A program made the translations under genes and the position numbers. Below are positions 8,004 through 52,700 of a DNA stretch of 64,000 nucleotides, piece after piece. The notes below the pieces were generated by a model that was not told the origin of the DNA, made no database searches, and was given only the letters and a program-made list of their open reading frames with translations. The DNA comes from an uncultured Verrucomicrobiae bacterium (GTDB lineage Bacteria > Verrucomicrobiota > Verrucomicrobiia > Limisphaerales > Palsa-1400), in NCBI GenBank assembly GCA_963707025.1, contig CAVPOM010000007.1, positions 1 to 64,000 on the forward strand. The letters run 5' to 3'. The stretch's first letter is position 1; each line of letters begins with the position of its first letter.

Positions 8004-8563
8004 CCGTCATGGTGTCAGCGCGCCGCATCTTAGTTGACCAGCAAAATATCGCAAGAAACGGTGACGTAATCCACTCGAGACCCGGCCGACCATCTGGAGC
8101 CCGGCCATATTTGAGGAAAAGCTCGTCGTGCCCCCGGGAAGTTGCAAATGGAGCGAGAAGGGGGGCACAATTCCCCATATGGCAGCAAACGCCGGCGTCA
8201 TGCCAGAAACAGACCAAGAGTTTCGCGGATCCATGCCGCAATGCCAAGCGTCCCGCGAAGTGGCGCACAATGGAATTCTTTGGGAATCCCTTCCGGTTCC
8301 CGCGTTCGGAAATGTGTGTCGCACAATGGTGAAGGTCGCGACCGTTGCCATAAACCCAGCGGTAATGAGTTCTTCGTCGGAGACGACGCCAAACTCGGGT
8401 GGCACGCCTGCCCTTGCTTCGGGACTATCGCAAACAGAATCGAAGGGATCTTGAGTCAAATGGAATTCAAAGGAGAGATTCGGGAATCGAACTCAACGGG
8501 GTGGTGAACTCTGCGGTTGTCCCCGGCGGGACGCGGAATAATGGCGGTCGGCCCAAACGCGTT

Positions 8564-8937
8564 TTAGAACTTCACCTTTTGCGCCATCGCCTGACTGTGT
8601 TCGTTGCCCAGGTGGCCATAGGTTTTCATCGCCAGCGCCCCGCCGTCCGCATGCCCAAGCCAACGTGAGACCGTTGGAATGTCCACGCCCGACTCGAGAC
8701 AGCGGGTGGCGAACAAGTGCCGCAGGTCGTGATGGGTGATGCGGTTTCAAGACTTTGGCGAATGGCCTTGCTTTGGAATTTGGCTCGTGCAAAATATGTT
8801 CCCGTGCGAACGTACTGGAGCAAATTGGGAACTTTGGGGAAGGACCGCCACTTGCCGTCTTTGGACAAATGTTGGTCTCGCGGTGCTTTTGCGGCTTTTG
8901 CGCCTGCCATTGTCGTTTCCTGGATTTCGGTTTGCAT
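8564..8937 (-). pseudogene. Internally deleted tyrosine integrase
   Basis: The N-terminal arm-type segment (KWRSFPKVPNLLQYVRTGTYFARAKFQSKAIRQSLET) joins out of frame directly to the catalytic C-terminus RITHHDLRHLFATRCLESGVDIPTVSRWLGHADGGALAMKTYGHL...KVKF* (HxLRH, LGH, catalytic Y). Confidence 0.85.
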
Positions 8938-9025
8938 GACTGAATCCTGCGGGATGCAATGACGGATGCATTGACAAAATACGCAAGGTTCTATTTTGTT
9001 GTAAGTAGTTCATTTTAAGATTGTT

Positions 9026-9102
9026 GCCTCGGTAGCTCAGTTGGTCAGAGCAGTTGACTCTTAATCAATTGGTCGTGGGTTCGAATCCCTCCCGGGGCAC
9101 CA
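9026..9102 (+). tRNA. tRNA-Lys(CTT)
   Basis: Acceptor stem GCCTCGG/CCGGGGC, D-arm TAGCTCAGTTGGTCAGAGC, anticodon loop CTCTTAA, T-loop GGTTCGAATCC, encoded CCA. Confidence 0.95.
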
Positions 9103-9242
9103 CTTTTCCCCTCGGAAAAGTGAAAAGAGCAGCCAAACACCTCGTAAGCGGAAAAGCCATTTTATACGTTGTTTTATACGTTGTTTTTCCGACGGTGACG
9201 ATCGCCCAAGTGCGTGGGCTTAAAAGCCCTAAAATAACGCAT

Positions 9243-9563
9243 ATGCAAAATATCGTCACGAACATCGCGCCAAACACCGCCGAAACCGCAACCCCAACCA
9301 CCCTGCGCCCAGCACCTGGCCGATCCACCAGCGCGAACCCGATCTGGGTCGCAGAAGCTGACGGCATCTGGCGCAACACAAAAGCAAAGCAAAAATGGCT
9401 TTACGAGCGGCCGATCATCCGAGGCAAGGAAACCTTCAAGGCCTTGGGGACCAAAAGCCTCAAGTTGGCGAAGGAAGAGTTTGCCAGACGCATCACCCTT
9501 CGCACCCAGGGCACCGAGCCGACCGAGAAGGCCTCAAAGGCAACCACGGCCGGCGCCGTCATA
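9243..9563 (+). pseudogene. Probable N-terminal fragment of a second integrase
   Basis: Lies just downstream of the tRNA. GIWRNTKAKQKWLYERPIIRGKETFKALGTKSLKLAKEEF resembles an arm-binding three-stranded domain. The sequence switches abruptly to unrelated coding sequence near 9560. Confidence 0.5.
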
Positions 9564-9679
9564 TGGGCCGCTACGCGCTGGCCAGGCCCCAGGAGATCCT
9601 TTACGAAACCCATGGCACATGGATTGATGCCACTGCGGCGGCCAAGCTCGACGATGCCGGCGTATGGAACCGAGTTCGG

Positions 9680-10186
9680 GTCCGGTATCCGAGTTTTCTG
9701 GAGCAGGAACGCCATTTCAGCAAGGCGCAGGTCGGCAACACCGCCATCATCTACAATCTGGGCGCGGTGGCCGGGGGCGTGTGTTTCGGGCTTTTTTCCG
9801 ACCGGCTTGGGCGGCGGCGGAGCATGGCGCTGGCCTTGCTGCTGGCGGTGGGCGTGATCCCTCTCTGGTCGTCCGGCGCCACGGCCGCGTCCTTGGTGGC
9901 GGGGGCGTTTCTGATGCAATTCATGGTGCAAGGGGCGTGGGGGGTGATCCCGGCGCACATCACCGAGGTGTCGCCCAATGCGGTGCGGGGTTTCCTGCCG
10001 GGATTTGCCTACCAATGCGGCGTGTTGCTGGCTGGGAACGCGGCGCACGTCGAAGCGCAACTGTCCAAGGGCAGCACCTATTCCAACGCGATGGCCATGA
10101 CCGCCTTCACCGCCTTCTGTCTCGGCGCCATCGTCGTCGTTTTTGGACCGGAGCGCAAGGCAGCGGCGTTTGCGGCGGAGGCATAA
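9680..10186 (+). pseudogene. C-terminal half of an MFS transporter (sialate/lactate:H+ SHS-like)
   Basis: YPSFL..., motif A FSDRLGRRR, QFMVQGAWGVIPAHITEVSPNAVRGFLPGFAYQCG and terminal GPERK are present. The N-terminal six helices are missing. Confidence 0.8.
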
Positions 10187-10290: not shown

Positions 10291-10332
10291 TTCCCCTGTT
10301 TAGGTGATGGTGATGCTACCATGTTAGGTGAT
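10291..10332. promoter_or_regulatory. Tandem imperfect palindromic operator (TCACC-N6-GGTGAT type) upstream of GH78
   Basis: TTCCCC-TGTTTA-GGTGAT at 10291 and GCTACC-ATGTTA-GGTGAT at 10315, 24 bp apart. The same arrangement recurs at 15116. Confidence 0.6.
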
Positions 10333-10437
10333 GACCAAACATGAATTCCAGTTTATACTGGTGGCGGATCAAGCGAGCGGACCTGAAAGAAAGAACACAA
10401 TTGGCGCAACGGAACACCCGCGCTATAATTCAGACTG

Positions 10438-10486
10438 GGGGCAAGGATGCCCCCAGGACCGGCAGGCTGGAAGCCTGGCCTACGGC
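10438..10486. repeat. REP-like hairpin pair
   Basis: GGGGCAAGGATGCCCC followed by CAGGCTGGAAGCCTG..CCTAC (GTAG end on the minus strand). Confidence 0.5.
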
Positions 10487-10590
10487 GGGGGTGTCGAGTT
10501 ACGCCTGAACCCAATCCTGCCAACCATGATGGAGCGCGCCGGTCGTGTCCGATGCCAGCAATGACAAGCCTCTCCTGCTCAGTTTGGACT

Positions 10591-13500
10591 ATGATGAACC
10601 TGACAAAAGGAGTGGTAGGGAGGGTGATGGCCGTCCTGGCGCTGGTGGCGTGGACGGACAGCGTGCAGGCCCAAGGAGTGTTGCAGCCGGTGAATTTGCG
10701 TTGCGGGATGCGCGTCAATCCGCTGGGTGTGGGGGACGCCAACCCCAGGCTTTCCTGGCAACTGCAAAGCGTCAGTCAGGGGAAGGACTTCCGGGGCGAG
10801 ACGCAAAGCGCCTACCAGATTCAGGTTGGTTCGGCGGCAGGCGCGGCAGATTTGTGGGACAGCGGCAAAGTGGCCGGCGCCGAAACGGTGGATGTTTTGT
10901 ATGCAGGCCAGCCGTTGACCAGCGGGAAACTATGTTTCTGGCAGGTGCGGGTGTATGACGGCGCCAACAACCCATCGGCCTGGAGCGGGCCGGCGCAGTG
11001 GTCCATGGGGCTGTTGAACCCGGGGGATTGGACGGCGCAATGGATCGGCTACGATGCGGCTTACGCCTTGACTCCGCAGCAGGCGTCCAGCAACGCCTTG
11101 TTCAACACTTCCAACCTGAACTGGATATGTTTCCCGAATTCGCAGGCGCAGGCGGGTATCGAACAGTCTTTGCTGCGCAAGCAGGTTGTCCTGCCCGCCG
11201 GCCAGACGATGACCAACGCGGTCGTGGCGCTTTACGCCGACAATTTCTGCAACGTGTTTGTCAACGGGCAGGAAATGACCAATTCGGCCATGCGCTGGGA
11301 AGCCACGGCGCAAATCAATGTGGCCGCGTGGCTGCACGCGGGAACAAACTTGCTGGCGCTGGGCGCCACTAATTCCGATGTCCAGGATGCCGCCAATGTG
11401 ATCGGCCGGCTGGTGGTGCAGTTCGCTTCCGGCAGCGTCTCAAATATCCCCGTGGATGGCACCTGGAAGGCCGCGCAAACGGCGCCCGCCAACTGGCCGC
11501 AGACTAATTTCGACGACTCCGCCTGGACCACGGCGGAAAGCAATTCCGGCACGCCGTGGGGCACTCCCGCGCTCAACGGCATCGCGCGGGTTCCCGCGCC
11601 CTATTTGCGCAAGACATTCACGGTGGGGCAGACGGTCACACGGGCGACCGTGTATGTCACGGCGCTGGGCGCGTATGAATTGCGGCTCAACGGCCAAAAG
11701 GTCGGCAACGATGTGCTCACGCCGGGCTGGACCCAATTCACCAAGCGTGTTTATTACCAGACTTACGACGTCACTGGGATGGTGCAGGCCGGCGCCAACA
11801 CCCTTGGCGCGATCCTGGGCGATGGCTGGTATGCGAGCGTCCTGGGCGGCAAAGGCCAGCGCTGCAATTACGGCGGCACCCCGCGATTGATGGCCCAGCT
11901 CGTGCTGAATTTTTCCGGTGGCGGCACACAGACGATTGTCACCGACCCTTCGTGGCTGGCCAGCTACGGCCCGATTCAATTCGGAGATTTGCTGATCGGA
12001 TCGGGCTACGATGCGCGCCGGGAGATGCCAGGATGGGATACCACCAATTTCAATGACAGCGCCTGGTCGCCGGTTGCGACCGGGCTGAGCGCCGCTGCGG
12101 TTGGCTACTCGAACGTGACGGCCATCGTCACGGGGTTGGAGACGAACAATCAACTCAACTTCGTGGCCAATAACGCCACCATGGGCGGCGATCCGGCCTA
12201 CGGCATAGTGAAAACTTTGCAAATCACCTTTTCACTCGGCGGCACAAACCAGACGCTGGCCTTTGCCGAAAATTCAACCGTGAACATCGGCGGGACGGGA
12301 CAAACTTTGACCATTATCCAGGCGCTTTATGGCAATTCGGCCTCGTTTCCCGGCGTCGGCGGGTTGCAAGTGCAGGCCGCCGTCACGGAACCCTCGCGCT
12401 GCCTTGCCACCCTGGCGGCGACCAATCTCACCGTGCCAAAGCCCGGCTGCTACACTTTCGATCTGGGCCAGAACATGGTCGGCTGGGTCCGGCTGAATAT
12501 CAGCGGCAAAATTGGCGACCGTATCACGGTGCGGCACGGCGAAATGCTCAATCCCGACGGCTCGATCTACACGGCCAATCTTCGCGGCGCCAACGCGACG
12601 GACTTCTATATTTTTGGCACCAATGGCGCCATAACCTATGAACCGCGTTTCACTTTCCATGGCTTCCGTTACGTTGAGGTGCGGGGACTGTCCGTACCGC
12701 CCGCGCTGAATGCGGTGACGGGAATGGTCGTGCATTCCGATATTGCCCAGACCGGCGCCTTCTCGTGTTCCAGCCCGCTGGTAAATCAACTTTTCAGCAA
12801 TATTATTTGGGGCCAGAGAGGCAACTATCTTGAGGTGCCGACCGACTGCCCGCAGCGGGATGAACGGCTGGGTTGGACCGGCGACACGGAATTCTTCGTG
12901 CCGACCGCCGCCTGCAATTTTGATGTGCAGTCCTTCTTCCGCCGGCATCTGGTCACGCTGTGCGAGGACTCGCAGGAGACCGATGGCGCCTACGCCAACG
13001 TCGCGCCCGACATGGGCGCCGGCAGTGGCGGAGCCGCCTGGGGCGATGCCGGATGGATCTGCCCCTACCACATGTATCGCAGCTACGGTGATACCAACGT
13101 GATCGCCGACCACTACGCCTCATTCCAACGTTACGGTCAATTCCTGGGTTCATACTCGTCGAACTTTGTGGTGGCCAGCCTGCCCGGGGATTTTGGCGAT
13201 TGGCTCAACCTGGGCGGCGGCGCCTCCGCAGCGGTGATAGACACCGCCTATTACGCTTACTATGCGCAGGCCATGTCGGTGATGGCCGCCGCCATTGGCC
13301 ACAGCGCCGATGCCGCGACCTATGCCACGCTGCGTGGCAACATCGTCGCTGCGTTCACCAATTTCTTCAAGGCGGACGGCTCATTCAAAGACGGCAGCAG
13401 TCAGACGGGCTTCGCGCTGGCCTTCACGCTGAACCTGGTGCCCGCCGGGCTGACCGGCCCGGTCGCGCAACAATTCGCCAACTCCATTGCCCAGTTCGAC

Positions 13501-14874
13501 AATCATCTGGCCACGGGCTTCATCGGCACGCCGCGCCTGCTGCCCGCCCTGCACGCCGCCGGCCGCGACGACCTTGCCTTCCAGGTGCTTCTCGAGCAAA
13601 CCTATCCTTCCTGGCTTTATCAGGTGAACCTGGGCGCGACGACGATGTGGGAACGCTGGGACGGCTGGACGCCCGGGGCCGGGTTCGAGAGCACGACCAT
13701 GAATTCGTTCAACCACTATGCCTTCGGTTCGGTCGGACAATACTTATACAGCGTCGTCGGCGGCATCAATCCGGCAAGTCCTGGCTACAAGACTATCCTC
13801 ATCCAGCCGGTCACGGCAGTGGGCCTGACTTGGGCCAGGACCAGCTACAATTCCACCCGCGGCCTCATCGCCACCGCGTGGACCAACGCCGGCGGCGCCT
13901 TCAACCTTGAGGTGGTGATTCCGCCCAACACGACGGCGCAGATTTATGTGCCCACCACCAATGCCAGTGCCATCACCGAAAGCGGCCTGCCGGCGGCCAG
14001 CTCTCCCGGCGTAACCTATGCCGGCTTTTCCAATGGCTGCGCCGTTTATGCCGTCGGCTCCGGCCAGTATGTGTGGTCTTCCGCGGTGGCGGCTCTCCCG
14101 CTCCCTCTGGCGGTGACGGAAACGGACGCGGTTTATGCCGGCGGCAGCTTCCCGCCGCTGCCGCGCGGGGATCTGCTCACCAACGCGACCACGACGGTGG
14201 TGGCTAATACCATTACGGTGGGGCCTGAAAATCATCTGCCCGCCTCCGCCCTCTATGACGGAAACATCGGAGAACCACTGACGACCAATAGAAGCTGCGA
14301 AATCAGCGGCGGAGCGATTACCTTTTGCCTCGGGCCGGGGGCCAACGGCCTCGGCTATACCATCACCAATTTGAACACCTACACGGCCTGGCAGGACGAC
14401 GGCCGCGAGGATGCAAATTATGCCGTCAGCTACTCCTCCGACGGCACCAATTTTTCGCCCATCGCGTCGGTGGCCTATAATCCCTCGCCGTATCCGACCC
14501 ATGATGGCACCGGTGGCACCCTCACCTCGCTGGCCGTCGCGAATTTGACGGGCGTGCAGTATCTCCAGTGGAATTTTTCCGCCGCCCAACAGAACGGCGG
14601 GGTCGGCTATACGGAGGTGGCGGTGTTTGGGCAGGCCAGCGTGCCGTTGGCGCCGGCGACCTTGGGCGTGGCTCAGTTGGCCGGGCTGACAAATTTCGTC
14701 ATGAATATCAGCGGCCTGGCACCCGGCCAGAGCTACACGCTCCAGAGCACGACCAACCTGGCGTCGGGTGTCTGGTCCACCGAGACCAATTTTGTCGCCG
14801 TGCAGGCCGCGGTCGCTTTGACCAACACCACGGCCAACTGCCCGCAAAAATTCTACCGCGTCGTGGGATATTAG
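10591..14874 (+). CDS. Multimodular secreted GH78 alpha-L-rhamnosidase
   Basis: Signal peptide, NPLGV..PRLSW N-terminal domain, CBM67-like domain, YLRKTF, DLGQNMVGW, PRFTFHGFRYVEV, PTDCPQRDERLGWTGD, GATTMWERW, MNSFNHYAFG, extra C-terminal modules. Confidence 0.93.
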   Translation: MMNLTKGVVGRVMAVLALVAWTDSVQAQGVLQPVNLRCGMRVNPLGVGDANPRLSWQLQSVSQGKDFRGETQSAYQIQVGSAAGAADLWDSGKVAGAETVDVLYAGQPLTSGKLCFWQVRVYDGANNPSAWSGPAQWSMGLLNPGDWTAQWIGYDAAYALTPQQASSNALFNTSNLNWICFPNSQAQAGIEQSLLRKQVVLPAGQTMTNAVVALYADNFCNVFVNGQEMTNSAMRWEATAQINVAAWLHAGTNLLALGATNSDVQDAANVIGRLVVQFASGSVSNIPVDGTWKAAQTAPANWPQTNFDDSAWTTAESNSGTPWGTPALNGIARVPAPYLRKTFTVGQTVTRATVYVTALGAYELRLNGQKVGNDVLTPGWTQFTKRVYYQTYDVTGMVQAGANTLGAILGDGWYASVLGGKGQRCNYGGTPRLMAQLVLNFSGGGTQTIVTDPSWLASYGPIQFGDLLIGSGYDARREMPGWDTTNFNDSAWSPVATGLSAAAVGYSNVTAIVTGLETNNQLNFVANNATMGGDPAYGIVKTLQITFSLGGTNQTLAFAENSTVNIGGTGQTLTIIQALYGNSASFPGVGGLQVQAAVTEPSRCLATLAATNLTVPKPGCYTFDLGQNMVGWVRLNISGKIGDRITVRHGEMLNPDGSIYTANLRGANATDFYIFGTNGAITYEPRFTFHGFRYVEVRGLSVPPALNAVTGMVVHSDIAQTGAFSCSSPLVNQLFSNIIWGQRGNYLEVPTDCPQRDERLGWTGDTEFFVPTAACNFDVQSFFRRHLVTLCEDSQETDGAYANVAPDMGAGSGGAAWGDAGWICPYHMYRSYGDTNVIADHYASFQRYGQFLGSYSSNFVVASLPGDFGDWLNLGGGASAAVIDTAYYAYYAQAMSVMAAAIGHSADAATYATLRGNIVAAFTNFFKADGSFKDGSSQTGFALAFTLNLVPAGLTGPVAQQFANSIAQFDNHLATGFIGTPRLLPALHAAGRDDLAFQVLLEQTYPSWLYQVNLGATTMWERWDGWTPGAGFESTTMNSFNHYAFGSVGQYLYSVVGGINPASPGYKTILIQPVTAVGLTWARTSYNSTRGLIATAWTNAGGAFNLEVVIPPNTTAQIYVPTTNASAITESGLPAASSPGVTYAGFSNGCAVYAVGSGQYVWSSAVAALPLPLAVTETDAVYAGGSFPPLPRGDLLTNATTTVVANTITVGPENHLPASALYDGNIGEPLTTNRSCEISGGAITFCLGPGANGLGYTITNLNTYTAWQDDGREDANYAVSYSSDGTNFSPIASVAYNPSPYPTHDGTGGTLTSLAVANLTGVQYLQWNFSAAQQNGGVGYTEVAVFGQASVPLAPATLGVAQLAGLTNFVMNISGLAPGQSYTLQSTTNLASGVWSTETNFVAVQAAVALTNTTANCPQKFYRVVGY

Positions 14875-15115
14875 CCTGCGACCCGCCGGCGCCGCGCGAT
14901 GAGCCGCTCCTTGCCGTGCCCTTCCCCTGCTGTGCTCCGGTTCCTGTTGGACGGCCCGCCAACACGATTTTCCCCCGGGCAGTGCAGCCCGGGGAGACGG
15001 CCGGCGAAACGGCTCCAGGGCTGGACGACCGAGCGGCGAACGGCAAAAAGTCAAAGCACGGGCGGAACAGGCCATCTGACAGGAAAGGGAAGATGTGCAG
15101 GAGTCTTGTTCCGGC

Positions 15116-15157
15116 TTCACCTGTTTGGGTGATGCCGGCGACACCTATTTTGGGGTT
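15116..15157. promoter_or_regulatory. Tandem imperfect palindromic operator upstream of the giant repeat protein
   Basis: TTCACC-TGTTTG-GGTGAT at 15116 and GACACC-TATTTT-GGGGTT at 15140, 24 bp apart. 23 of 25 nt match the site at 10285-10309. Confidence 0.6.
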
Positions 15158-15274
15158 GCACAGCAATGAGGGTGCTGTTTATACTGCTGGCCGAAAGCAC
15201 GCAATGCGCAGTTGGATGGGTGATCTATCCAGGCGCGAGTTGTGTGGCTGATCGAAAAACAAAAACCCGACTTT

Positions 15275-18200
15275 ATGAAATTCCAAACAATACGGCGCGG
15301 CTGGCTGGCTGCCTTGCTGGCCGTCAGCGCCACCGTCCAAATCGCCGGCGCCGGTTCTGTAACCATCCCGAACTTCTCTTTTGAAACCACCAACGGAGAC
15401 CTCATCACTGCTCCCGGCGGCAATGCCGGAGAATACAATGTCGGGATCTACTGGACCTGCAATGATACGGGCGGCCCGGTTTATGTCGTCAATTTCAGTG
15501 CCAGCGGCGTTGACTTCACCAATGCCATAGCACCCACAATTCTCCCGCCGACTGGCAACGGCACCAATTACCTGGTCGAGGATATCGCCGCGGCCCCCGC
15601 CGCCTTCCCGGTCTGTTGGCAGGATCTGGGCCCTCTGCCAGCCCAATACCACCTATACCCTGACCATCGCGGTCGGACAAACTCTGGTGGGCGTTACCAA
15701 CCCTTTCATCGCCATCGGCCAGGGTTTTATCGCCCTGGTCAACGGCCCGACTCCTTACTACCCTGTTCTTGGCGCCGCGTTCGTGGATAACAGCATCCAG
15801 GCGCCAGGCACCTTTATTGACTTCACCCTGGTCGTGACCACCCCATCGGTGGTCAGCGGGGATCTGACCGTTGCGATGGAAGGGACTAATGGAAGCCAGA
15901 TTTGCTTTGATAATGTGCGCCTGAGCACAACCGCGGCGGCCAACCCCATGGCGCTGCTTCCTTCGATTTCCGCTCCGTCGGCCAACCCCACGGCGCTGCC
16001 TTCCGCTCCCTCCGCCTTCAAGACTGTCTATGTGGGCTCGGTGGTGACCCTGAGTGAGCTTGCCGCGGGGACCTCCCCGTTCACTTACCAATGGCAAACG
16101 GACAACGGCACGGGCGGCGCCACCTTCACCTCCATCCTCAACGCCACCAACGCAAATTACGTGCTGACCAACAGCGCTCCCATGGGTCCTGTGGAATATC
16201 AAGTGATCGTGACCAACAACCTTGCCAACTCCTCCACCAGCGCGCCCGTCACCCTGTCGGTTGGCCAAAGCGCGCCGGTGATTGTGCAAGACACGCTGCC
16301 TTGGTTGTCGCCCAGCGATGTCGTGGGCAGCTCGGAGACATTCACCGTGGTGTTTGTCGGCGACCAACCCATCGGTTACCAGTGGCAGGTGGATTACGGC
16401 TCGGGGCCGGTACCCGTCACCGGAACGACCCTCAATGGCACGACCAATGCAACGTTGACGCTGATCAATATGCAGGTTTCCGACAGCGGCCGTTACTCGT
16501 GCGTGGCGACCAATGATCAACCCGGAGCCGGGATCAGCACGCCGACGTTCCTGACGGTCAATCCTGCCCCGGTGGCAGATTCGTATGGCGTCATTCAAGC
16601 CCAGGCGGTGCAGGAGGGTTTTGGCAACAACACCCTGTTCACCCCGACCTGGACGCTGCCGGCCAACAGCCTGATTGCCGGAGTACAACCCTACGCCGCC
16701 GACACCAATAATTTCAAATTGTTTGGTTGTTTTGGCACCAACATTTTGACGGACGGCACCTTTGGCGCGATCAGTCCAGCGGCGGCGGGGGAGATCATGG
16801 CCACCATGGGCAACCCCAACGCGGGGGGAGCGCCGGCCGACTTTGTGACCTGGCTGCTGCCGGCCAATGCCAACGGCTGGGACATCACCAACATCGTCAT
16901 TTATGGCGGCTGGACCGACAACGGCCGTGACCAGCAATCCATCAACATTCTCTATTCAACCATCGCGGCTCCCACGGTTTTCAGCTCAGAGGTGACACAA
17001 GTCAATTTCCTGCCAAACGCCCCCACCCTCGTTCAGGTCGCCGCCCGCAGTTCGCTCACCTCCGGCACCGCCAGCCCGGCGATGGCGCATAATGTCGCCG
17101 GCATCCAATTCAACATGAATATCCAGGCGGGTGGCTACAATGAAAACGGCTGGGAGGGCTACTCCCAATTTCAAGTCTTCGGCACCGCTTCGGCCCCCGC
17201 GCCGGTCTGGGTCACAAACATGGTGCCGGCGACCGGCACGGATGTCGCTGGCAGCGCGGTGACCATGGCCTGCGTGGCCAACTACTCTCTGCCCCTGACT
17301 TACACTTGGACGGCCGTCTATGCCGATGGCCACGGGACCGGACCTGTCACAGGCACGTCGGCCAATGGCACGACCAATTCATCCCTCATGCTCAGCAACT
17401 TGCAACTTTCCGACAGCGGCACTTACACCCTCATGGCAACCAATGTCGCGGCCAGAACCGGCTTGGTCAGCTTCCCCTGCGCCTTTTTAGTCAATCCAGC
17501 GCCAACGCCGGATGCTTTTGGGGTGCTGGATTCGCCCGCCAGCCAAACCGCCAACACCGCGGTGCTGACTCCCACTTGGACCGTCGCGCCCGGCAGCCTG
17601 ATTGCCGGATTGCTCCCCAGCGCCACCAACGCCGGCAATTTCAGGCTGGAGACCGCGTCGGTCGGTCTGCCTGTGCTCACGGATGGCAGCGTTGGCTTTA
17701 TAGGCGGCGGCGACCAGGCCATGGTCACGGCCGGGGGCAGTGGCGGCACAGGTTTTACCTACACCCTCCCCGCCTCCACCTATGGATATAACATCTCCAG
17801 TATTGTGGTCTATGGTGGATGGGGTGACGGCGGCCGCGACGAGCAGGAGTACAACATCTCCGCTGCGACCGTCAGCGCTCCCGGTAATTTCAGCTTGCTG
17901 ACATCCTTCGACTACCGGCCGCCGACGGAAGCCATAGGACCCGGCGCGCCGAATATGACCCGCGTGACTTACACGGCCGGGAGCGGGCCGTATCTTGCCC
18001 GAAATGTCACTGGGCTGTCGTGGAACTTTAATGTGGTTCTCCCTGGCAGTCATAGCACCTCTGGCGGTGGCGAAAACGCCTATGAGGGCTACTCCGAGAT
18101 TGACGTGTATGGCACCCCCGCCTTGGCCCCCGCGCCGGTGGCCTTTACCACCAACATGATGCCGGAGGCCGGCTCCGATGTCGTTGGCAGCTCGGTCACC

Positions 18201-20283
18201 ATGTTTTGCACGGCCACAAGTCCTAATCCGCCCCTGACTTACCAGTGGCAGGCCAATTACGGCGGCGGGCCGGGAGCTGTGGCTGGCACGTCGGCCAACG
18301 GCACGACCAATTCCTCGCTGATGCTCACCAATTTGCAATACAGCGACACCGCCACTTACACCCTCACGGTGACCGACCACTTGGGAGACGCCCTCACCAG
18401 CCTGCCCTGCTACTTTACCGTCAATGCGGCGTCAACGCCGGATGGTTACGGATTGATTGATTCGCCCGCCAGTCAACAAACCAGTTACACCACGATCCTG
18501 ACCCCCACCTGGCCCGCCCCCGCGGCCGGAAGCCTGATTGCCGGAATGTTGCCGAGCGCCTTGTTTGCCAACAACGGCCAGCAATCTTTCACCAACTCTT
18601 TGAATGGAGATGCCATGACCAATGGCATCGGTTTGGCAGTTCTCACCGATGGCCAGATTGGTTATGCCAACGGCAGCGCCACCAGCCAGGCCATGGTCAT
18701 TATCGGGAGCGGCACCAGGGGGGGCAATGCCCTCACCTACACCCTCCCCTATTCCGAGGGCGGGTATTCCATCTCCGCAATTCAGGTCTATGGCGGATGG
18801 GGCAACGGGAACCGCGACGAGCAACTCTATACCATGTACCTATTCGACCGCCGGCGATCCCTCGGTGTTCATCCCATTCCTATCCTACGATTACCAGCCG
18901 CCGGCTGAAACCACGCCCTTCCAGTTTCCCAACATGACGCGCATGACTTACACGCCTGCCAGCGGGTCTTATATCGTGCAAAACGCCGCTCAAATCTACA
19001 TCAACTTTACGAGCAATACGGTGAATGGGAATACCGGGGAAAACGGCTACCAGGGCTACTCGGAGATAGACATCTACGGGACGCCCTCCGCGGCCGCGGT
19101 GTTCTCGCCCACCGTGACAACGAACACGTTGCCCAGCGTCTGTCAGGATGTGGTCGGCAGCTCTGAAACCTTCATCGCCGGTTTTAGCAGTTCTGCTCCC
19201 ATGACCTACCAATGGATGGTGGATACCGGCTCCGGGCCGGTCAACGTCACCGGTTCCCAGTTTTCGGGCGTGACCACTCCAGTGCTGACAGACAGCAACT
19301 TGCAGCTTGGCGACTCCGGCTCCTATTCTTGCGTCGCAACCGTCGCCACCGGCCCTGCCGCGGGCACGGCCACGAGCGCTCCCAACACGTTCGCCGTCAA
19401 CCCCGCGCCCACGGCGTCAGGCAACATTATTATTTCCAATGCCCTGCAAGCGTGGTCCAACACCACATTCGCTCCTACTTTTACGCCGACCTGGACAGTT
19501 CAGCCAAGCAGCCTGATCGCCGGAACTCTTCCGAGCAGCAGCGCCGTGAGGAGCGGAGGCAGTTTTTCTGAGAATGGCCAAGGCAGCAGTGGCTTGGGAG
19601 GCGGGGGTCTGCCCGTCCTCACCGATGGGTTTCCTGGAACGTACGGAGACAACACCGACATTACCCTGGCGAGTTGCGGCAGCACCATGGGCTCAAATAT
19701 TATCTATACTCTCGGAGGGCCTTCCGGTGCGTATAATATCTCCAGCATCGTCACTTATGGTGGATGGGCTAACAATGGCCGCGACGAGCAAGCATACACG
19801 GTTTATTATTCAACCGCCTCCGCCCCCGCAACTTTCATCAACCTGACCGCCAACGACTATAAAGTCGCCAGCGTCCTCACCGGGGCCTCGGGCTGGAACA
19901 ACTACCCGGATTGCTCCCGCTCAACGATCGCCGCGGTCAACGGGGTTCTCGCCTCCAACGTCTATGCCGTCGGGTTCAACTTTGTCACGCCCAATGGTGA
20001 AAACAACTGGGAGGGCTATGCCGAGATTCAGGTGTTCGGCACCGTGGCGCCCCTGCCGACGTTCCATCCACCGACCTTTTCCGGCGGCAATCTGAACCTG
20101 ACCGGCACCGGAGGAAATCCGGGAGGAGGCTATACCTGCCTCACGAGCACGAATGTGGCCGCGCCATTGTCAACCTGGACAACCAACAGCCAGGGGACGT
20201 TCAATGGCTCCGGCGCGTTCTCCATCATCATTCCGGTCGGCACAACGCCGCCCGCCCAGTATTTCCAGATCAGGGTGCCGTGA
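15275..20283 (+). CDS. Large secreted protein (~1670 aa) with Ig-like domains and four copies of an unassigned beta-rich module, apparent indels near 15640 and 18840
   Basis: Signal peptide MKFQTIRRGWLAALLAVSATVQIAGA, then SVTIPNFSFE. Four repeats of TPTW..SLIAG..LTDG..I.(V/I/T)YGGW...GRD(E/Q)Q..EN.(W/Y)(E/Q)GY. C-terminal STNV...W...YF domain. ORFs 15242, 15687 and 18622 join. Confidence 0.8.
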
Positions 20284-20312
20284 TGGTGAGTGAAGCAGGG
20301 AAGGAGTTGAAG

Positions 20313-20341
20313 GCAAGCCCCTTCGATGGGAGGGGGCTTGC
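20313..20341 (+). terminator. Stable hairpin after the giant gene (possible terminator or mRNA stabiliser)
   Basis: GCAAGCCCCTTC...GGAGGGGGCTTGC, with no U-tract. Confidence 0.35.
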
Positions 20342-20389
20342 GTGAGAGGCTTGGGACTCAGATTCCCAGTTGGCGGTGCCTTAATTTGG

Positions 20390-20439
20390 TGTAGAGTCGA
20401 GCCTGTGCCTCGACTTCGGCGCACAGCGCCGACACTACA
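20390..20439. repeat. Inverted GTAG-REP doublet (REPIN-like)
   Basis: TGTAGAGTCGAG..CTCGAC and, on the opposite strand, TGTAGTGTCGGCGCTGTGCGCCGA. Confidence 0.6.
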
Positions 20440-20495
20440 ACAAGGGAATTGAGGCACTGCCTCCCAGTTTGTTAATTTGAGAAGTTGATGGTAAG

Positions 20496-21367
20496 ATGAA
20501 GATAATAAATCGAGTACGAGTCAGCCAGCCGGGAGGTCGCCGGGGAGGGGCCGCGTTCACTTTGATTGAGCTGTTGGTGGTGATTGCCATTATTGCCATT
20601 CTGGCGTCATTGCTCTTGCCGGCATTGGCCAGGGCCAAACAACAGGCGCTGGGCGCCAATTGCATCAGCAATTTGAAACAACTCACCCTGGGGGCCCATC
20701 TCTACGCCGGTGATAATGGCGACAAGATGGCCCCAAATGCCATCGGCGGCGATGAGTCCTGGGTGCAGGGAGATATGACCGTCATGGTGGACGCCACCAA
20801 TCTTTTTTTCATCACCAATTCCCTGTCCTTGTTTTATCCCTATGTCGGTTCCGCCAAGATTTACTGGTGCCCGGCGGACTTAATCCCCATGAGTGGCACA
20901 TCCGTGCCGCGGGTGCGCAGTTTCTCCATGAGTTGCATGATGGGAAACAACCTGGGCTCGGCGGGCGATGTTCATCCCGGCATTCCAGAAAACCTCAAAT
21001 TCTCCCTGGTCATGAGCCCGGTCCCTCTCAGGCCTTGGTTCTCATGGATGAGCAGACTAATCCCAATATCGCCAAGCAGAGCCTGGACGACTGCTATTTC
21101 GCCCTCAACGCCGTCGTCGGCGCCGGGGGACTGCCCACCCCGCCCAATACTTATGATTGGCGCAACATTCCCTCAAGCCGCCACGGCAATTTCGGGCAGA
21201 TGTCCTTCGCCGACGGCCGCGTGGCAAAAGTCAAATGGCGGGAACCAAAAACCCAGACGATGTTGGGCACGGGACCCGGGGGGAATGAGGACATTCCTGG
21301 CACCGTGCCCTATGACTTGGATTTGCAACAGATTTGGTCATCAGTTTATCCTCCCTCCGGCTGGTGA
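20496..21367 (+). CDS. Prepilin-type N-terminal methylation / H-X9-DG (DUF1559-like) protein, apparent indel near 21018
   Basis: [37 protein letters not shown] and YWCPAD. The second frame supplies MDEQ and [13 protein letters not shown], an exact H-X9-DG motif. Confidence 0.9.
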
Positions 21368-21423
21368 GGCCGGGGCCGCATCAAGACCGGCTAACGCACT
21401 GGAGGCGGTAAAAGCAGACAAGA

Positions 21424-23016
21424 GTGACATCTGATCCGGGCGTATTCATCCATGTCATGTCGGGCGTGACGGACGTAAGAGGCCGGAATGTTTATTTGGA
21501 AAATCCTATCCCAAAGACCTTGCAGCGTTGGATTCATTACAGGTGGCCGGCAGCTTCCCGATTGTGCCGCTCCAGCGGGAGAGCGATCGGGCCTTTTTTG
21601 TTGGCTTGGCCCCTGGCTCTCATCACCCCGCTCCCCGCCTCGGCCGGCCAGGAAATCGTTCCGGATGGGTCAGAATCTTCCGATAGTCGGACCAGCGGCC
21701 TTGGCTTCTGGATTTGGGCGGCGCAAACCTTCGACCGGCAGACCTGCCTGCTCTGGAGGTCGTTTGAAATTCCCCCCTCCGCCACGGTGGCGCAAGCCTG
21801 GCTGACCATGACGGCGGACAACGAGTACACCCTTTTCCTGGACGGGCGCAATGTGGGGCGGGGAGCCGAGTGGCGCCACCTGGGCAAATATGATTTGACC
21901 CAGCTCATGTCCCCCGGCAAACACGTGCTGGCCGTCGAGGCTTACAACGTGGACGCGGCCGCAGGAATGATCTTTGGCATGCGCATTGATCTGGCGGACG
22001 GAGGATTCATTGAAATCAAATCGGACAAAAGCTGGCGGATTGTGCCCGAAAAGACGCGGGGTTGGCAGACCCTGACCAAGGCCCAGGATGCCTGGCCGGA
22101 GGCCACGATTATAGGGCCAATCGGGACCTCGCCTTGGTGGAGGACCCCCGAGGGCATCGAGATCAACCCGCCGTTGCAAGTGATCCACACCCCCCTCTGG
22201 CAGGCCGGCTGGTTCCAAGTCACACTCCTGACACTCTGCGGCACGGCCATCCTGATCAGTTTCTACCTCATGTCCCAACTGGCCTTCCATCGCCAGGAAC
22301 GATGGCTGCTCCAGCAGGAGCGCGCCCGCATTGCCAGGGACATCCATGATGACGTCGGTTCGAGAATGACTCAACTGGTATTGCATGGGGAAGTGGCGCG
22401 AAACGATCTCCCCGCCGGCTCGGAAGCCTGCTTGCAGCTTGACCAGTTCTGCGAGGAAGCCCGCGGGCTGCTCTCCACCATGGATGAAGTCCTCTGGGCC
22501 GTCAACCCGCGGCGGGACACCCTGCGCAACTTTGTCTCCTATGTTACCGACTATGCCCAGAAATCCTTGAAACGCACCGCCATCCAGTGTGTTTTGGACG
22601 TGGAACCGGAGATGCCGGCGCAAGCCCTGGATCTTCCGCTCCGGCGCAACCTGCTCATGGCCATCAAGGAGACCCTCAACAACGCGGTCAAATACTCTGA
22701 AGCCACCGAATTGCTGCTGCATATTCAACGCCTCAACCAGGGCCTGGTCGTGGTCGTGCAGGACAATGGCCGGGGCTTTGACCCGGCGGCGGCCAAGCCC
22801 GGCCGCAACGGCTTGGCCAACATGACCCAGCGCATGACCGAGCTGGGCGGAGAATGCCGCGTGATCAGCCAGCCGGGCAAGGGTTGCCGGATCGAGTTTC
22901 GTGTGCCGCTCAACCGCTCGCGCAGTCACCTGTGGAGCAGGATATGGCGATCCAGGCGGTTCGCCACCAGTGTCATTGAAACCAAGATGCCCGGCGGCAA
23001 AAGCCTCACCATCTGA
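21424..23016 (+). CDS. HisKA_3 (NarX/UhpB-type) sensor kinase with a CBM67-like periplasmic domain
   Basis: [39 protein letters not shown] and a single TM helix. The sensor has [34 protein letters not shown]. Start uncertain. Confidence 0.88.
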
Positions 23017-23681
23017 TGATCCCGCCCAATGTTAGAACAAGGGGCCCGCTGAAAGTGGCCTTGGTGGAGGATCAGCCGAAAGTCCGCGAGAGTTGGACCC
23101 GGCTCATCAACTCCTTCTCCGATCTTTCCTGCATCTGCGCCTGTGCCACCGGCGAAGAGGCCGTTCGCATCATTCCTCAAAAACTGCCGGATGTGATTCT
23201 GATGGACATTTTCCTCCCCAGAATGTCCGGCATCGAGTGTACCGCCAGGCTCAAGGTGCTGCTGCCCGAGGTGCAGATTGTCATTCTCACAGCCATGGAT
23301 GACCAGGAACTGGTCTTCATGGCCTTGGAAGCCGGGGCGGACGGCTACCTCTTAAAACGAACCAAGCCGGCGGATTTGCGAACCGCTTTGCTGGACGTGC
23401 TGGGCGGCGGTGCTCCCATGACCAGTCAGATTGCCCGGCGCGTGATCGAGTCCTTCCGGCAGAAGGCCAAGACCCGCGACCAATCCGTCCATCTATCCAT
23501 CCGGGAAGAGCAGATCCTGGCCCACCTCTCCCAGGGCTATTCCAACAAGCAGATTGCCGGCAAGCTGGAGTTGAGCATTGACACCATCTGCAGCCATTTG
23601 AAACACGTTTACGAAAAGCTGCATGTCAGCTCGCGCACCGAGGCGGTCGTTCGCTATCTGGCCTCCAAAACGCCGCCGTAA
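23016..23681 (+). CDS. NarL/FixJ family response regulator (REC + LuxR HTH)
   Basis: LVEDQ, ILMDIFLPRMSG, GADGYLLK, LSIREEQIL..GYSNKQIA..KLHVSSRTEAV. Confidence 0.95.
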   Translation: MIPPNVRTRGPLKVALVEDQPKVRESWTRLINSFSDLSCICACATGEEAVRIIPQKLPDVILMDIFLPRMSGIECTARLKVLLPEVQIVILTAMDDQELVFMALEAGADGYLLKRTKPADLRTALLDVLGGGAPMTSQIARRVIESFRQKAKTRDQSVHLSIREEQILAHLSQGYSNKQIAGKLELSIDTICSHLKHVYEKLHVSSRTEAVVRYLASKTPP

Positions 23682-23775
23682 TGCCCGGACCATGATGTTC
23701 ACCCTTCATCCAAAATGAACCCGCCTCGAAGCAAAAACAACGCCCGCCCTTGACAACCTGAATTGATCCACAAAC

Positions 23776-26774
23776 ATGAAAAACGAAATTGAAAACAAAA
23801 AAAGTAATCCCGGCATTGCCGGCGGCTCTTTCCCGCGCTGGCGGCGTTGCTGGGACTTGGTCTGCTGGCCGCCGCCGCCGCGCCCTCGCCAGCCGCCGGC
23901 TTGCGCTGCGAAAAACTGCGTTGTGAATACCTGACCGACCCGCTGGGAATTGACGCGGCCAGCCCGCGCCTGAGCTGGATCGTCACTTCCAGCCAGCGCG
24001 GCGCCAAGCAGACCGCTTATCAAATCCTGGCGGCCTCCTCCGTCAAACTGCTGGCCCTGGACCGCGGCGATCTGTGGGACAGCGGCCAGGTGGCCTCCGA
24101 CCAAACCTCTCAAATCGCCTATTCGGGCCAGCCGCTGGTCTCCCGCCAAAGCTGTTTCTGGAAAGTGCGGAGCTGGGACCGCCCGGGGCATGCAGGCGCT
24201 TGGAGTCCGGCCGCCCGGTGGCAAATGGGCTTGCTCGACCCGGCGGACTGGAGCGCGCATTGGATCGCCGCGCCAGCCCCCGTCTCCGCTTCCACCCAGC
24301 CCCTGCTCATTCACCATGCGGCCTATGAAGCGGTGGAAGGCGCCGGCAGCGCGGACGTGACCGCGGCCGTGGCCGGCCAGGTGAAGAATGGCCGCATCAA
24401 TATGATTGTCAATAACAAGAATCTGGGCGGAGATCCCGCCCTCAACCGGGTCAAGCAGTTGCGGGTGGAGTATGAGTTGGGCGGCCAATCCTTCCAGAAG
24501 GAGATCGCCGAAAATCAAACCTTCTCCATCCCGGATGATGGGGCGGCCTCGCGCTATTTGCGCAAATCCTTCGCGCTGAGTTCCTCCATCCAACAGGCCG
24601 TGCTCTATGCGACCGCCCTCGGTCTTTACGAGGTCCATATCAACGGGCAGCGCGTGGGCGACCATGTCCTGGCTCCGGACTGGACCGACTACCGCAAGCG
24701 GGTGCGCTACCAGGCCTACGATGTCACCGCGCTGCTCAGGCGCGGCGACAACGCCATGGCCGCCCTGCTGGGGGACGGCTGGTACAGCGGCCACATCGGC
24801 AACGGCGGCTATCAATTCTTTGGCAAAGCGCCGGCCTTTCTCGCCCAGTTGGAAGTGACCTACACGGATGGCCGCACCGAGCGGATTGTGACCGACGCCT
24901 CCTGGAAAACGCACCGCAGCCCGATCCTCTCCTCCGATTTCATGTTGGGCGAGGATTACGACGCCCGGCTGGAAGTGAAAAAATGGGATGAACCCGGCCT
25001 GGAAGAAAGCCAGTGGGTCGCGGCCGCGCGGCGCGACGAATCCCTGCCCTTGCAAGCGCAAGTCATGGAGCCGGTGCGCCAGATCTGCGAGATCCAGCCC
25101 AAAACCGTTGCGGAATCCAAACCCGCTTGCTGGATTTACGATCTCGGACAGAACATGGTGGGGGTGGTTCGCTTGAAGGTCGAGGCGCCCGCCGGTACGG
25201 AAGTCAGATTGCGCCACGCGGAGATGCTCAATCCGGATGGGAGCATCTACACCAAAAACCTGCGCGGCGCGGCCTCCACCGATCATTACATCTGCAAGGG
25301 CCAGGGTCTGGAGATCTGGCAGCCCCGTTTCACTTTCCATGGCTTCCGCTATGTGGAACTGACCGGCCTGGCCGGCCGGCCGGGCAAGGAGGCGGTGACC
25401 GGAATCGTGATTGGGTCGGACACGCCCCGGACGGGCGAGTTCACCTGCTCGGACACGCGCCTCAACCAGCTTCAGTCCAACATCCAATGGGGCCAGCGCG
25501 GCAATTACATCAGCATTCCCACCGACTGTCCGCAGCGCGATGAGCGCCTGGGTTGGATGGGCGACGCCGAAGTGTTTATCCGCACCGCCACCTACAATGC
25601 CGATGTCGCGGCCTTCTTCAGCAAATGGCTGGTGGATGTGGATGACGGCCAGTCGGCGGAAGGCTCGTTTAGCGACGTGAGCCCAAACACCGCGCTGAGT
25701 GGTGGCGCTCCCGCCTGGGGCGATGCCGGGGTCATCTGCCCGTGGACCATTTACGAAGCCTACGGTGACAAGCGCATTCTGGAGCGCCACTTGCCCGCCA
25801 TGACCAAATGGGTGGAGTATTTGCACCGCAACAGCACCGGTTTGATCCGGCAACGGAACCGCGGCAATGATTATGGCGACTGGCTCGCCATCGGCGCCAA
25901 CACACCCAAGGAACTGATCGGCACCGCTTACTTCGCCTATTCCACACACTTGCTGGCCCGGTCCTGCCAGGCTCTCGGACGCGTGGAAGAAGCGGCGAAA
26001 TACGAGCAGTTGTTTCAGGACATCAAGGCGGCTTTCGACAAACGTTATGTCGCCGCGGACGGCCGCATCCAGGGCAATACCCAGTGCGACTACGCCATGG
26101 CCCTCAAATTCGAACTGCTGCCCGATGAACTCCGGCCCAAAGCCGCCCAGTATCTGGAAGAGGACATCCAGGCCAAAGGCGGACATCTTTCCACCGGCTT
26201 TGTCGGGGTGAGCTACCTGCTGCCGGTCCTGACCCAGTGGGGCCAAGCCGGCACCGCCTATCGCCTGCTTCTCCAGGACACCTTCCCATCGTGGCTGTTC
26301 TCGGTCAAACACGGCGCCACCACCATCTGGGAACGTTGGGACGGCTGGACCCCTGAAAAAGGATTTCAAGATCCGGGCATGAACTCCTTTAACCATTATT
26401 CGCTCGGTTCCTGTGGTGAATACCTCTTCGGCGGCATTGGGGGCATCCGCCCGGCCAGTCCGGGTTTCAAGAGCATCCTGATTGATCCGGTCATTGGCGA
26501 CGGCCTGGCCTGGGCCAAGACCAGCTATGATTCCATCCAAGGCCCCATTGCCACGTCCTGGAAACGCGACGGCCAACGGCTGGCGCTGCAAGTCGTCGTG
26601 CCCGCCAACACCACGGCCACGGTTTGCGTTCCGGCCAGGGACCTGGCGGGCGTCACGGAGAGCGGCAAGCCCGCGGCGCAGTCGGCGGATGTGAAATTTC
26701 TGCGGCAGGAAAAGGACAGGATTGTTTTGCAAGTGGGTTCAGGCACCTACAACTTCGCCTCGGAACTAAATTAG
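23776..26774 (+). CDS. Secreted GH78 alpha-L-rhamnosidase (start at 23776 with a probable indel near 23810, or TTG at 23847)
   Basis: LRCEYLTDPLGID..PRLSW, DLGQNMVG, PRFTFHGFRYVE, PTDCPQRDERLGWMGD, GATTIWERW, MNSFNHYSLG. Confidence 0.93.
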
Positions 26775-26906
26775 AGCGTTTTCAAGAAAACTGTAGCCGC
26801 AACACGCGGTAGGGTCCCGGCAGGCCGGGATTGCCCGCCGCGGCGCGCACGGAGTGCGCGCCCTGCCTCCTTCGTTTCGGCTGCACAATTTCTTAAACTG
26901 CCCTAA
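26771..26906. mobile_element. MITE-like element, copy A, with an additional related terminus ending at 26990
   Basis: Termini TTAGAGCGTTTTCAAGAAAACTGTAGCCGC and (reverse complement) TTAGGGCAGTTTAAGAAATTGTGCAGCCGAAACGAAG both match the element at 58620-58749. Confidence 0.65.
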
Positions 26907-27138
26907 AGGAAACCGCAGCCACACAAGGCAAATCAGTTCATCGCCTCCTGCCCGGATGTTATGGCCGCGGTTCTGTTGAAAACGCTCTGATCCGGGGAGT
27001 CTGAAATTTATTCTGCCCGCATGGAAAGCCGCAATGCGCGCAGAATAAATTCAATCCCCTCCTTTGTCGGGGAAAATGCGGAGTCGGCGGTCATGCGCCC
27101 GAATCATGGGAACGGTTTCAGGAAACCCGCCTGCCTCC

Positions 27139-51848: not shown

Positions 51849-52598
51849 TCACTGCCAACTTGTCAGAAGGTGTTTATTGATGGGACTGTTGTAATTTGTT
51901 GACAGATCAACCTGTTTTAACGAGCCGAAGGACCAAATCATGGACGAGCCGGGCACGGAAAAACTGTTGGTGTTCATGAGCACCGACCATGTCCGGGTGT
52001 CGGTGCATTTCCCGTCACCATTTAAATCCAGCGTCATGATGTAAGGCATTCCCCACGGGTCGCGCAAGATGTTGTTCGCGTCAATGCCGGGCGAATTTGT
52101 GTCCCTGGCGGGCCTTCCTTCGAACTCGGTGATCTTGCGCGAATTATAGAGATGCTGACTCGCGGCGTTGGTTTCAGGATAATAGGCGGCGTCCGTCAGA
52201 ATCGCGATCACTTCGGAATTGACGTTTTGATATTGGCTCCCAGGCGTCAGAGGATTCTGGCTGATGGCGGTTGGACTCACAATTTGCATGCCCTCCAAAG
52301 GCGAGTTGGTGGGGGGTGAACCCGTGTTCTTGACAACCGTGCCGAACGTAAAATCACTGCCCAGGCCGGCGGCCGCATTCGCAGCGGACAGGGATGCCGG
52401 CAGGACGCCATACTCAGACTGGAACGCGCTGATCGAGGCCTTCAAATGGGACATTTCAGCTCTCGCGGTTGCTTCCTTGGCCTTGGTTTTGGCAACGGCC
52501 AAAGCGGGCAGCAAGATCGCCGCCAGAATGCCGATGATGGCGATGACCACCAGCAACTCAATCAGTGTAAACGCATCTTGGTTGCGAGGCTGTTCCAT
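51849..52598 (-). CDS. Type IV pilin / GspG-like prepilin protein
   Basis: [23 protein letters not shown] and DPWGMPY. Confidence 0.88.
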   Translation of the reverse strand: MEQPRNQDAFTLIELLVVIAIIGILAAILLPALAVAKTKAKEATARAEMSHLKASISAFQSEYGVLPASLSAANAAAGLGSDFTFGTVVKNTGSPPTNSPLEGMQIVSPTAISQNPLTPGSQYQNVNSEVIAILTDAAYYPETNAASQHLYNSRKITEFEGRPARDTNSPGIDANNILRDPWGMPYIMTLDLNGDGKCTDTRTWSVLMNTNSFSVPGSSMIWSFGSLKQVDLSTNYNSPINKHLLTSWQ

Positions 52599-52700
52599 AG
52601 AGTCACCGGGGATTTTCATACCTTAAACCACAAGGCAATGCAGAACCGGCCAGCGGCTCAGGCCCACCCAGGACAGGGCGCAAGCGCCAGGCGCCTCCCA

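Follow-up and report, generated by a model that had tools for sequence, protein, structure and literature searches.

Gene Content and Reading Frames of the Locus

We analyzed a stretch of 64,000 nt (the window; all coordinates are positions in it) from contig CAVPOM010000007.1 of an uncultured soil bacterium of the Verrucomicrobiae. The listing of open reading frames (ORFs) together with Pfam searches revealed six co-oriented units, all on the + strand, between a truncated sugar transporter gene of the major facilitator superfamily (MFS; ~9527-10186) and purB. In this order, they encode a glycoside hydrolase of family 78 (GH78a), a giant Ig-containing protein, a prepilin-type protein, a HisKA_3 histidine kinase, a NarL-type response regulator, and a second GH78 protein (GH78b). 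An initial annotation of this DNA had placed six co-oriented genes here and had stated that TonB-dependent, ABC, or intact MFS transporter genes are lacking; both statements were confirmed, the latter within the locus. It had overlooked the strongest feature of the locus, a lectin domain of family CBM67 that forms the sensor part of the kinase.

Both GH78 proteins contain the (alpha/alpha)6 catalytic domain PF17389 with its companion domains (E 6e-103 and 7e-118). GH78a (10591..14874, +; the ORF is open from 10447, and the ATG at 10591 is the likely start) consists of a signal peptide, an Ig domain, a CBM67 module (~11119-11565), a SUEL-like insert (12103-12348), the catalytic barrel, an F5/8-like module (14146-14640), and a C-terminal tail, a layout that equals that of the rhamnosidase SaRha78A from Streptomyces avermitilis. 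A SUEL-like insert is also present in GH78b (~23776..26774, +; insert at 24345-24590), and the best PDB match of these inserts was the L-rhamnose-binding lectin 5H4S (E 0.022). RDE and [MI]WERWD motifs (MWERWD in GH78a) occur in both proteins and match the sites of the catalytic acid and base. For SaRha78A, we take the catalytic base to be Glu895. The catalytic acid of this enzyme is given as Glu636 in the accessible text of PMC4690510. Both GH78 proteins are therefore predicted, from sequence, to be alpha-L-rhamnosidases. The sharing of domains among the genes, as noted in the initial annotation, was seen in three cases: CBM67 in GH78a and the kinase, the F5/8-like repeat in GH78a and the giant, and the SUEL-like insert in both GH78 proteins.

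As assembled, the giant gene is spread over three frames and the prepilin gene over two, and the signal peptide of GH78b is off frame. This is due to four one-base breaks, near 15638 and 18839 (giant), 21020 (prepilin), and 23822 (GH78b). An independent short-read contig (run X1) is without base 15638, and after 23822 it contains one additional base. In the congener G268, all six genes are intact single ORFs in the same order, with single-base differences to the window near 15640, 18839, and 21020. The intact giant of the congener has 1,674 aa and four repeats, in agreement with the giant repeat protein of ~1670 aa that had been proposed from the window. The prepilin gene is also intact in the related locus L001; the correction near 18839 and 21020 rests on relatives only. 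Because the X1 contig corrects two breaks and the ORFs of G268 are intact, the four breaks are very likely one-base assembly errors. True pseudogenization of a cassette that decays in this strain would be in line with four breaks in one locus, with the integrase and MFS remnants upstream (see below), and with the lack of a correction from the organism's own reads near 18839 and 21020, but every break is a single base, none of them occurs in the congener, and two are corrected in the independent contig. Moreover, frame junctions are frequent in the whole 18-contig assembly (637 among 6029 strong coding segments), and with one caller 36/356 coding segments were affected in loci of this genome versus 10/793 in other genomes, a rate about 8 times higher. 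Decay of the cassette is therefore extremely improbable.

A CBM67 Domain as Predicted Kinase Input and a Tandem Operator

The kinase (21424..23016, +) comprises an N-terminal hydrophobic segment, an extracytoplasmic domain (~21685-22158, +), a transmembrane helix, and the kinase core. The extracytoplasmic domain of 155 residues lies between two hydrophobic segments. Residues 105-240 of the kinase match a model of the S. avermitilis rhamnosidase (E 6.6e-14), and the sensor matches a CBM67-like lectin of the mushroom Pleurotus ostreatus (E 2e-20; by profile 1e-32) and S. avermitilis Rha78A (3W5M; profile E 3e-20). By sequence, this domain is a CBM67 lectin module, as is also present in GH78a. 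The calcium and rhamnose ligands of SaRha78A are D179, N180, W203, N228, and P233. At the corresponding positions, 54 kinase domains have D (54/54), N or D (54/54), W (51/54), and N (53/54); the window kinase keeps D, N, W, and N, and has Ala at the position matching P233. The domain is homologous to the CBM67 of SaRha78A (3W5M/3W5N) and to the P. ostreatus lectin (6T0Q, 6KBJ), with which it has the first four of these residues in common. Unlike in those proteins, CBM67 is predicted to act here as input of a membrane histidine kinase. CBM67 is described as a calcium-dependent rhamnose-binding module that raises activity on insoluble substrates (accessible text of PMC4690510), and the mushroom lectin is classed as CBM67-like with a broader specificity (PMC11186620, in the part available).

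CBM67 kinases were detected in 42/301 sampled genomes of the order and in 3/401 of the phylum. GH78 was present in 31 of 32 kinase-positive genomes versus 11 of 32 kinase-negative ones, all of these genomes being related and not independent. Among 38 top library matches, picked by length from 150, most were HisKA_3/HATPase kinases, and the databases name CBM67 kinases only 'histidine kinase'. A literature search that covered few subscription papers and no supplements retrieved no description of a CBM67-sensor kinase, of the operator, or of the cassette.

Some of the kinases differ in architecture. Those of L047, L053, L054, L068, and L082 have two tandem CBM67 domains, like the mushroom lectin. 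In P0024, P0016, and P0025, a complete GH106 rhamnosidase or GH43/F5-8 domains precede the CBM67 sensor in the same protein, and these kinases are possible enzyme-sensor fusions. The GH106-kinase fusion P0024 gives little support, since it is a single sequence and L055 has the parts as separate genes.

The initial annotation had also proposed an operator common to two genes, which was borne out. Tandem 17-bp imperfect palindromes of the TCACC-N6-GGTGA type with a 24-bp period precede GH78a (operator A, 10292..10332, +) and the giant gene (operator B, 15117..15157, +, same geometry). They are kept in the congener and are the only two tandem sites in the 6.96-Mb genome. About 1.0 Mb of related loci yielded 24 tandem matches (two of them the seeds), as compared to 0 in 676 kb of control loci, and each of the 24 immediately precedes a gene for a repeat-bearing protein, a GH78, a pilin, or a regulator. 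In L047, the pilin has its own operator. Pilin and giant are thereby placed under the predicted operator that also precedes GH78 genes. When the matrix was built from the four boxes of the window alone, 28 matches were found in the related loci and 0-4 (mean 0.6) in 52 Markov controls; 24 of the 28 had a spacing of exactly 24 bp, with 18-30 bp allowed.

Both window promoters are sigma70-like, with the -10 ending at 10359 (+) for operator A and at 15185 (+) for operator B. In both, the second box overlaps the -35, and the same -10 hexamer is found at 67-68 bp. An overlap of box and -35 is the layout that would be expected of an activator. We used only the geometry of these two sites, because the counts of promoters and terminators did not exceed those in shuffled sequences. 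The NarL/LuxR-type regulator (23016..23681, +) carries a clade-specific helix (S-I-D-T-[VI]-C-S-H-L-K). The helix DT[VI]CSHLK was present in 10/10 operator-bearing loci with a cognate regulator. Three further loci had the helix and no operator match at the thresholds used, and 18 regulators of the sister clade showed neither helix nor operator.

Recurrence of the Gene Set, the Giant Protein, and the Pilin

The 39 kinase loci that we fetched were selected by kinase score, most of them being the top scorers among about 60. A rhamnosidase (GH78 or GH106) was found in 15, the repeat protein in 13, and a pilin in 18 of them, and all three partners together in 8, from three family codes. Giant, pilin, kinase, and regulator genes were collinear in 7/39 loci (L045/46, L048, L050, L051, L052, L053, L070), and L053 repeats the full six-gene order. 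The gene order, as expected in the initial annotation, thus recurs in other genomes. In a FastTree phylogeny, the clade of the window kinase (17 loci) had a rhamnosidase nearby in 10, the repeat in 12, and a pilin in 11 loci; the numbers for the sister clade (22 loci) were 5, 1, and 7, respectively. All 8 complete loci fall into the 17-member clade. In a separate set of related loci, which partly overlaps the 39 and was counted apart, GH78 occurred in 10/14.

The genome under study has eight other HisKA_3/NarL loci, and none of them contains GH78 or GH106. In four of the eight, a prepilin-type gene and one for a large protein accompany other sugar genes (GH10 and esterases, GH92, GH53, fucose isomerase), so the architecture seems to be a general type of locus whose sensors can be exchanged. 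More giant-plus-pilin modules were seen in the same genome (L086-L089, L097, L099; G000 contigs C3, C5, C10, C12), several of them with propeller-type kinases and with xylan, mannan, galactan, or fucose genes.

The giant secreted protein (15275..20283, +) is built of a signal peptide, an HpiC1-like jelly roll, Ig domains, four F5/8/CBM32-like repeats (16590-17195, 17523-18122, 18456-19092, and 19429-20046, +), and a tail. No recognized catalytic domain was detected in it, and the repeat of about 200 residues had no Pfam or PDB sequence match. The structural model of the repeat is confident (pLDDT 90) and shows a galactose-binding-domain-like sandwich. Its fold matched CBM32 modules and fucolectins with Z 10-12 (CpGH89 CBM32-6: Z 11.4, rmsd 2.7, 123 aligned), and the first match in the Atlas was F5/8 (0.94). 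GH78 enzymes, GH78a among them, also have this type of repeat attached, an arrangement typical of binding modules. The repeat was found in 22/301 genomes, 14 of which also have a CBM67 kinase. The model supports a lectin-like fold of the giant, and we consider it fairly probable that the protein binds glycan. The C-terminal tail was tried as a mark of pilin partners and was rejected, since with a narrow profile a tail-bearing gene lay within 1.5 kb of 3/43 pilin genes.

The prepilin-type protein (20496..21367, +; mature form ~270 aa) has an N-terminal methylation motif (PF07963, E 1.8e-6). The initial annotation had classed it as an H-X9-DG protein, which agrees with the motif as read from the sequence and with a class III signal peptide; the 22-position model TIGR04294 did not score the broken prepilin piece. 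Pfam DUF1559/SBP_bac_10 (PF07596) gave no match to the window pieces or to the intact L001 orthologue. The structural model comprises a long N-terminal helix (4-54) and a head of low confidence (pLDDT 57), and the top fold matches of this low-confidence model were pilins with Z 5 or lower. The genome encodes about 45 prepilin-type paralogues and a prepilin peptidase and has six secretin matches. Among 24 multi-repeat giants, 4 are at contig edges; 14 of the other 20 have a pilin at ≤200 bp, and 2 within ~5 kb. In one starred pilin clade, 12/16 members belong to giant/GH78 loci, and none of 18 outer relatives adjoins a giant. A reverse search for pilin relatives gave matches in 47/301 genomes. 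For a real role of the pilin in foraging at this locus, we regard the chances as evenly balanced.

Like the N_methyl plus SBP_bac_10 (DUF1559)/H-X9-DG proteins of the Planctomycetes-Verrucomicrobia-Chlamydiae (PVC) group, the pilin has a class III signal peptide, the H-X9-DG motif, and a large paralogue family. It differs from PVC DUF1559 proteins by the missing PF07596 match and by a subclade that is tied to a defined enzyme set and an operator. In the accessible text of PMC8567305, expanded prepilin-type proteins are noted without function, and H-X9-DG-type proteins of Tuwongella are described as expressed, membrane-associated, and often flanked by genes for secreted proteins. A function for the expanded prepilin-type proteins was not found in the literature searched.

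Tandemly repeated giant-pilin units occur in L114 and L120, each pilin being from a different subclade. Related H-X9-DG pilins often adjoin genes of 3-keto-glycoside catabolism (PF06439, AP_endonuc_2, ThuA, DUF7133), as seen in L127, L128, L130, L133, L139, L142, and L146. This is a second link of the pilin family to sugar use.

In the congener, the flanks of the cassette are different, with CE15 upstream and a third GH78, URO-D, and GH5 downstream; the cassette thus changes its genomic context. Upstream of the cassette in the window, a tRNA-Lys gene (9026-9102) lies in a segment (8500-10186) where it is flanked by apparent integrase remnants and the truncated sugar MFS gene. The remnants have no Pfam match and presumably stem from an integrase, as judged from sequence motifs. 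An Rfam scan found no RNA besides tRNA-Lys. A pair of 40-nt inverted repeats is located directly downstream of GH78b (26770-26991). A second giant with DUF5122 propellers and Ig domains (634-8000) is broken up into three ORFs, probably through assembly errors of this kind, and two more prepilin-type genes of a distant subfamily are present at 51852-53495.

A Model for Rhamnoside Foraging and Its Alternatives

Gene content, domain sharing, conserved order, the operator, and its co-occurrence with the regulator clade were observed and form the basis of our model, whose mechanistic steps we infer. As a whole, the locus is best explained as a six-gene rhamnoside foraging cassette under the control of the CBM67 kinase, a reading to which we give somewhat better than even chances. 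Basal GH78 activity would release rhamnose from plant or microbial glycans, and rhamnose and calcium would bind to the periplasmic CBM67 domain of the kinase. The phosphorylated regulator would then activate the GH78a promoter and the promoter of the giant-pilin-kinase-regulator-GH78b genes, resulting in positive feedback. A regulon that includes rhamnose release, sensing, and promoter activation is highly probable. The secreted multivalent giant may hold the polymer close to the cell surface, while the GH78 enzymes with their own CBM67, SUEL-like, and F5/8-like modules would trim it. The pilin may join a type IV filament or a type II secretion machine as a substrate-induced minor subunit and help in the export or display of giant and enzymes. 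The monosaccharide would enter via RhaT and be catabolized via RhaA. A SusC-like importer would not be required, because exo-rhamnosidases yield monosaccharide.

Several observations weigh against this model. RhaT and RhaA are present in the genome and unlinked to the locus, no tandem operator was found at either gene, and a search of the 88%-complete genome gave no RhaM. According to a table in the available part of PMC11186620, Gal, GalNAc, and GlcNAc are further ligands of CBM67-like lectins. The non-lectins IFT25 (Z 13.0), BIRC6, and SUN match the giant repeat equally well or better. Of the CBM67-kinase loci, 24/39 have no rhamnosidase within the fetched stretch, and some adjoin fucosidases, GH2, GH51, or GH127; since the genomes are related, all counts overstate independence. 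No pilin lies near four of the 20 multi-repeat giants that could be assessed, the closest three relatives of the pilin of the congener are orphans outside such loci, and only 1 of 20 further pilin-relative loci fetched held a giant or GH78.

The initial annotation had gone further on uptake, and proposed that pilin and giant may take over the role of SusC/D in glycan capture. If both formed a pair that captures and imports one specific substrate and replaces SusD and SusC, glycan would be bound by the giant, and a filament with the pilin would draw oligosaccharide into the periplasm by way of a secretin. The lectin-like fold of the giant is in line with the first part, and the proximity of pilin and giant in 14/20 assessable cases, the repeated units in L114 and L120, and modules of the same type with other CAZymes (carbohydrate-active enzymes) in the genome fit the pairing. 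SusD was not found in the 88%-complete genome. In addition, PMC13174399 connects type IV-like pili of Akkermansiaceae with the attachment and uptake of glycans, and reports that polysaccharide accumulates in the periplasm of Pedosphaeraceae. Minor pilins that bear a lectin are known from Streptococcus (accessible text of PMC9934059). However, the cassette encodes no pore, five TonB-dependent receptors are present elsewhere in the genome and none in the locus, and the monosaccharide expected from exo-acting GH78 enzymes with signal peptides would not depend on a dedicated importer. Together with the giants that lack a pilin and the orphan paralogues nearest to the window pilin, this makes the replacement of SusC and SusD unlikely.

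It is still less likely that the regulon is real and the pilin a mere passenger from an expanded family, with the giant serving general particle adhesion and not substrate binding. Many of the ~45 prepilin-type paralogues have unrelated neighbors, giants and pilins are also found on their own or together with propeller-type kinases, and the repeat fold is common to non-lectins. But in three family codes the pilin gene stays between those of giant and kinase, and in L047 it has an operator of its own. The repeat is also attached to GH78 enzymes, in the manner of CBMs. Action of sensor and enzymes on another sugar or on small rhamnosides (flavonoid glycosides, rhamnolipids) instead of a polymer appears very unlikely. 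Some CBM67 kinases adjoin GH29/GH95, GH2, or GH51, or carry GH43-like domains, and GH78 enzymes are widely described on flavonoid glycosides in the texts accessible to us. Against this, the enzyme neighbors in the clade of the window kinase are mostly GH78/GH106, and the many appended binding modules argue for an insoluble substrate, in view of the CBM67 effect described in the accessible part of PMC4690510.

Polysaccharide utilization loci (PULs) of Bacteroidota are characterized by SusC/SusD, hybrid two-component sensors, and clustered CAZymes. The locus resembles them in its clustered CAZymes, a surface glycan-binding candidate, and a predicted periplasmic sugar sensor that likely controls the locus, and differs by the lack of SusC/SusD and the presence of a prepilin-type gene. 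The Bacteroidota sensor is a hybrid of the AraC type with a propeller, whereas here a HisKA_3 kinase with a single CBM67 lectin domain is separate from a NarL regulator. By the classical definition of SusC/D PULs, clustered CAZymes and a dedicated sugar sensor are present, and an adjacent pair of SusC and SusD is absent. Thus, what stands of the PVC-type utilization locus of the initial annotation is a conserved, probably co-regulated rhamnosidase locus of Verrucomicrobiota without SusC/D, with relatives of the Limisphaerales/Pedosphaerales type, and its gene order recurs across families. We conclude that the locus works like a PUL without being a SusC/D member; its regulon is well supported, and a role in uptake is speculative. 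The CBM-bearing RsgI anti-sigma sensors of cellulolytic clostridia also use a carbohydrate-binding module as extracellular substrate sensor. They are alike in the reuse of a binding module, and differ by the anti-sigma mechanism, by other CBM families, and by not being two-component kinases.

PUL-like units without SusCD are known from Verrucomicrobiota, and polysaccharide uptake without SusC/D is stated there as open (PMC8857213, as far as its text was available). HisKA_3 systems near CAZymes were noted in Pontiella (accessible text of PMC10880615). In the same phylum, the MUL2 locus of Akkermansiaceae also ties a pilin-like gene to glycan foraging (PMC13174399). MUL2 is a single locus of four genes that include PilM and an archaeal-type pilin, whereas the pilin of the cassette described here is of the N-methyl H-X9-DG type, belongs to an expanded family, and is part of a substrate-specific regulon. 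As a comparison with the MUL2 synteny (amuc_1099-1102) showed, none of the six genes is PilM-like or otherwise of the MUL2 type.

New here are the CBM67 lectin domain as predicted kinase input, the tandem operator, and the six-gene cassette. The locus offers a predicted inducer (rhamnose), a predicted lectin sensor, a precisely defined operator, and a regulator helix that goes with it; all four can be tested with purified proteins, so the organism need not be cultured. The CBM67 kinase might also be used as a component of rhamnose biosensors. The operator ties pilin and giant to a named substrate. As a broader and tentative idea, which we hold to be possible and rather doubtful, Pedosphaerales-type Verrucomicrobiota may use a modular, SusC/D-free mode of foraging, in which each locus combines a kinase with a lectin or propeller sensor, a multivalent giant that binds glycan, and a cognate H-X9-DG pilin in a shared type IV filament that captures or imports the specific glycan. 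If this is true, the rhamnoside locus would be the first decoded member of this system, and the large H-X9-DG pilin family of PVC bacteria would be given a function.

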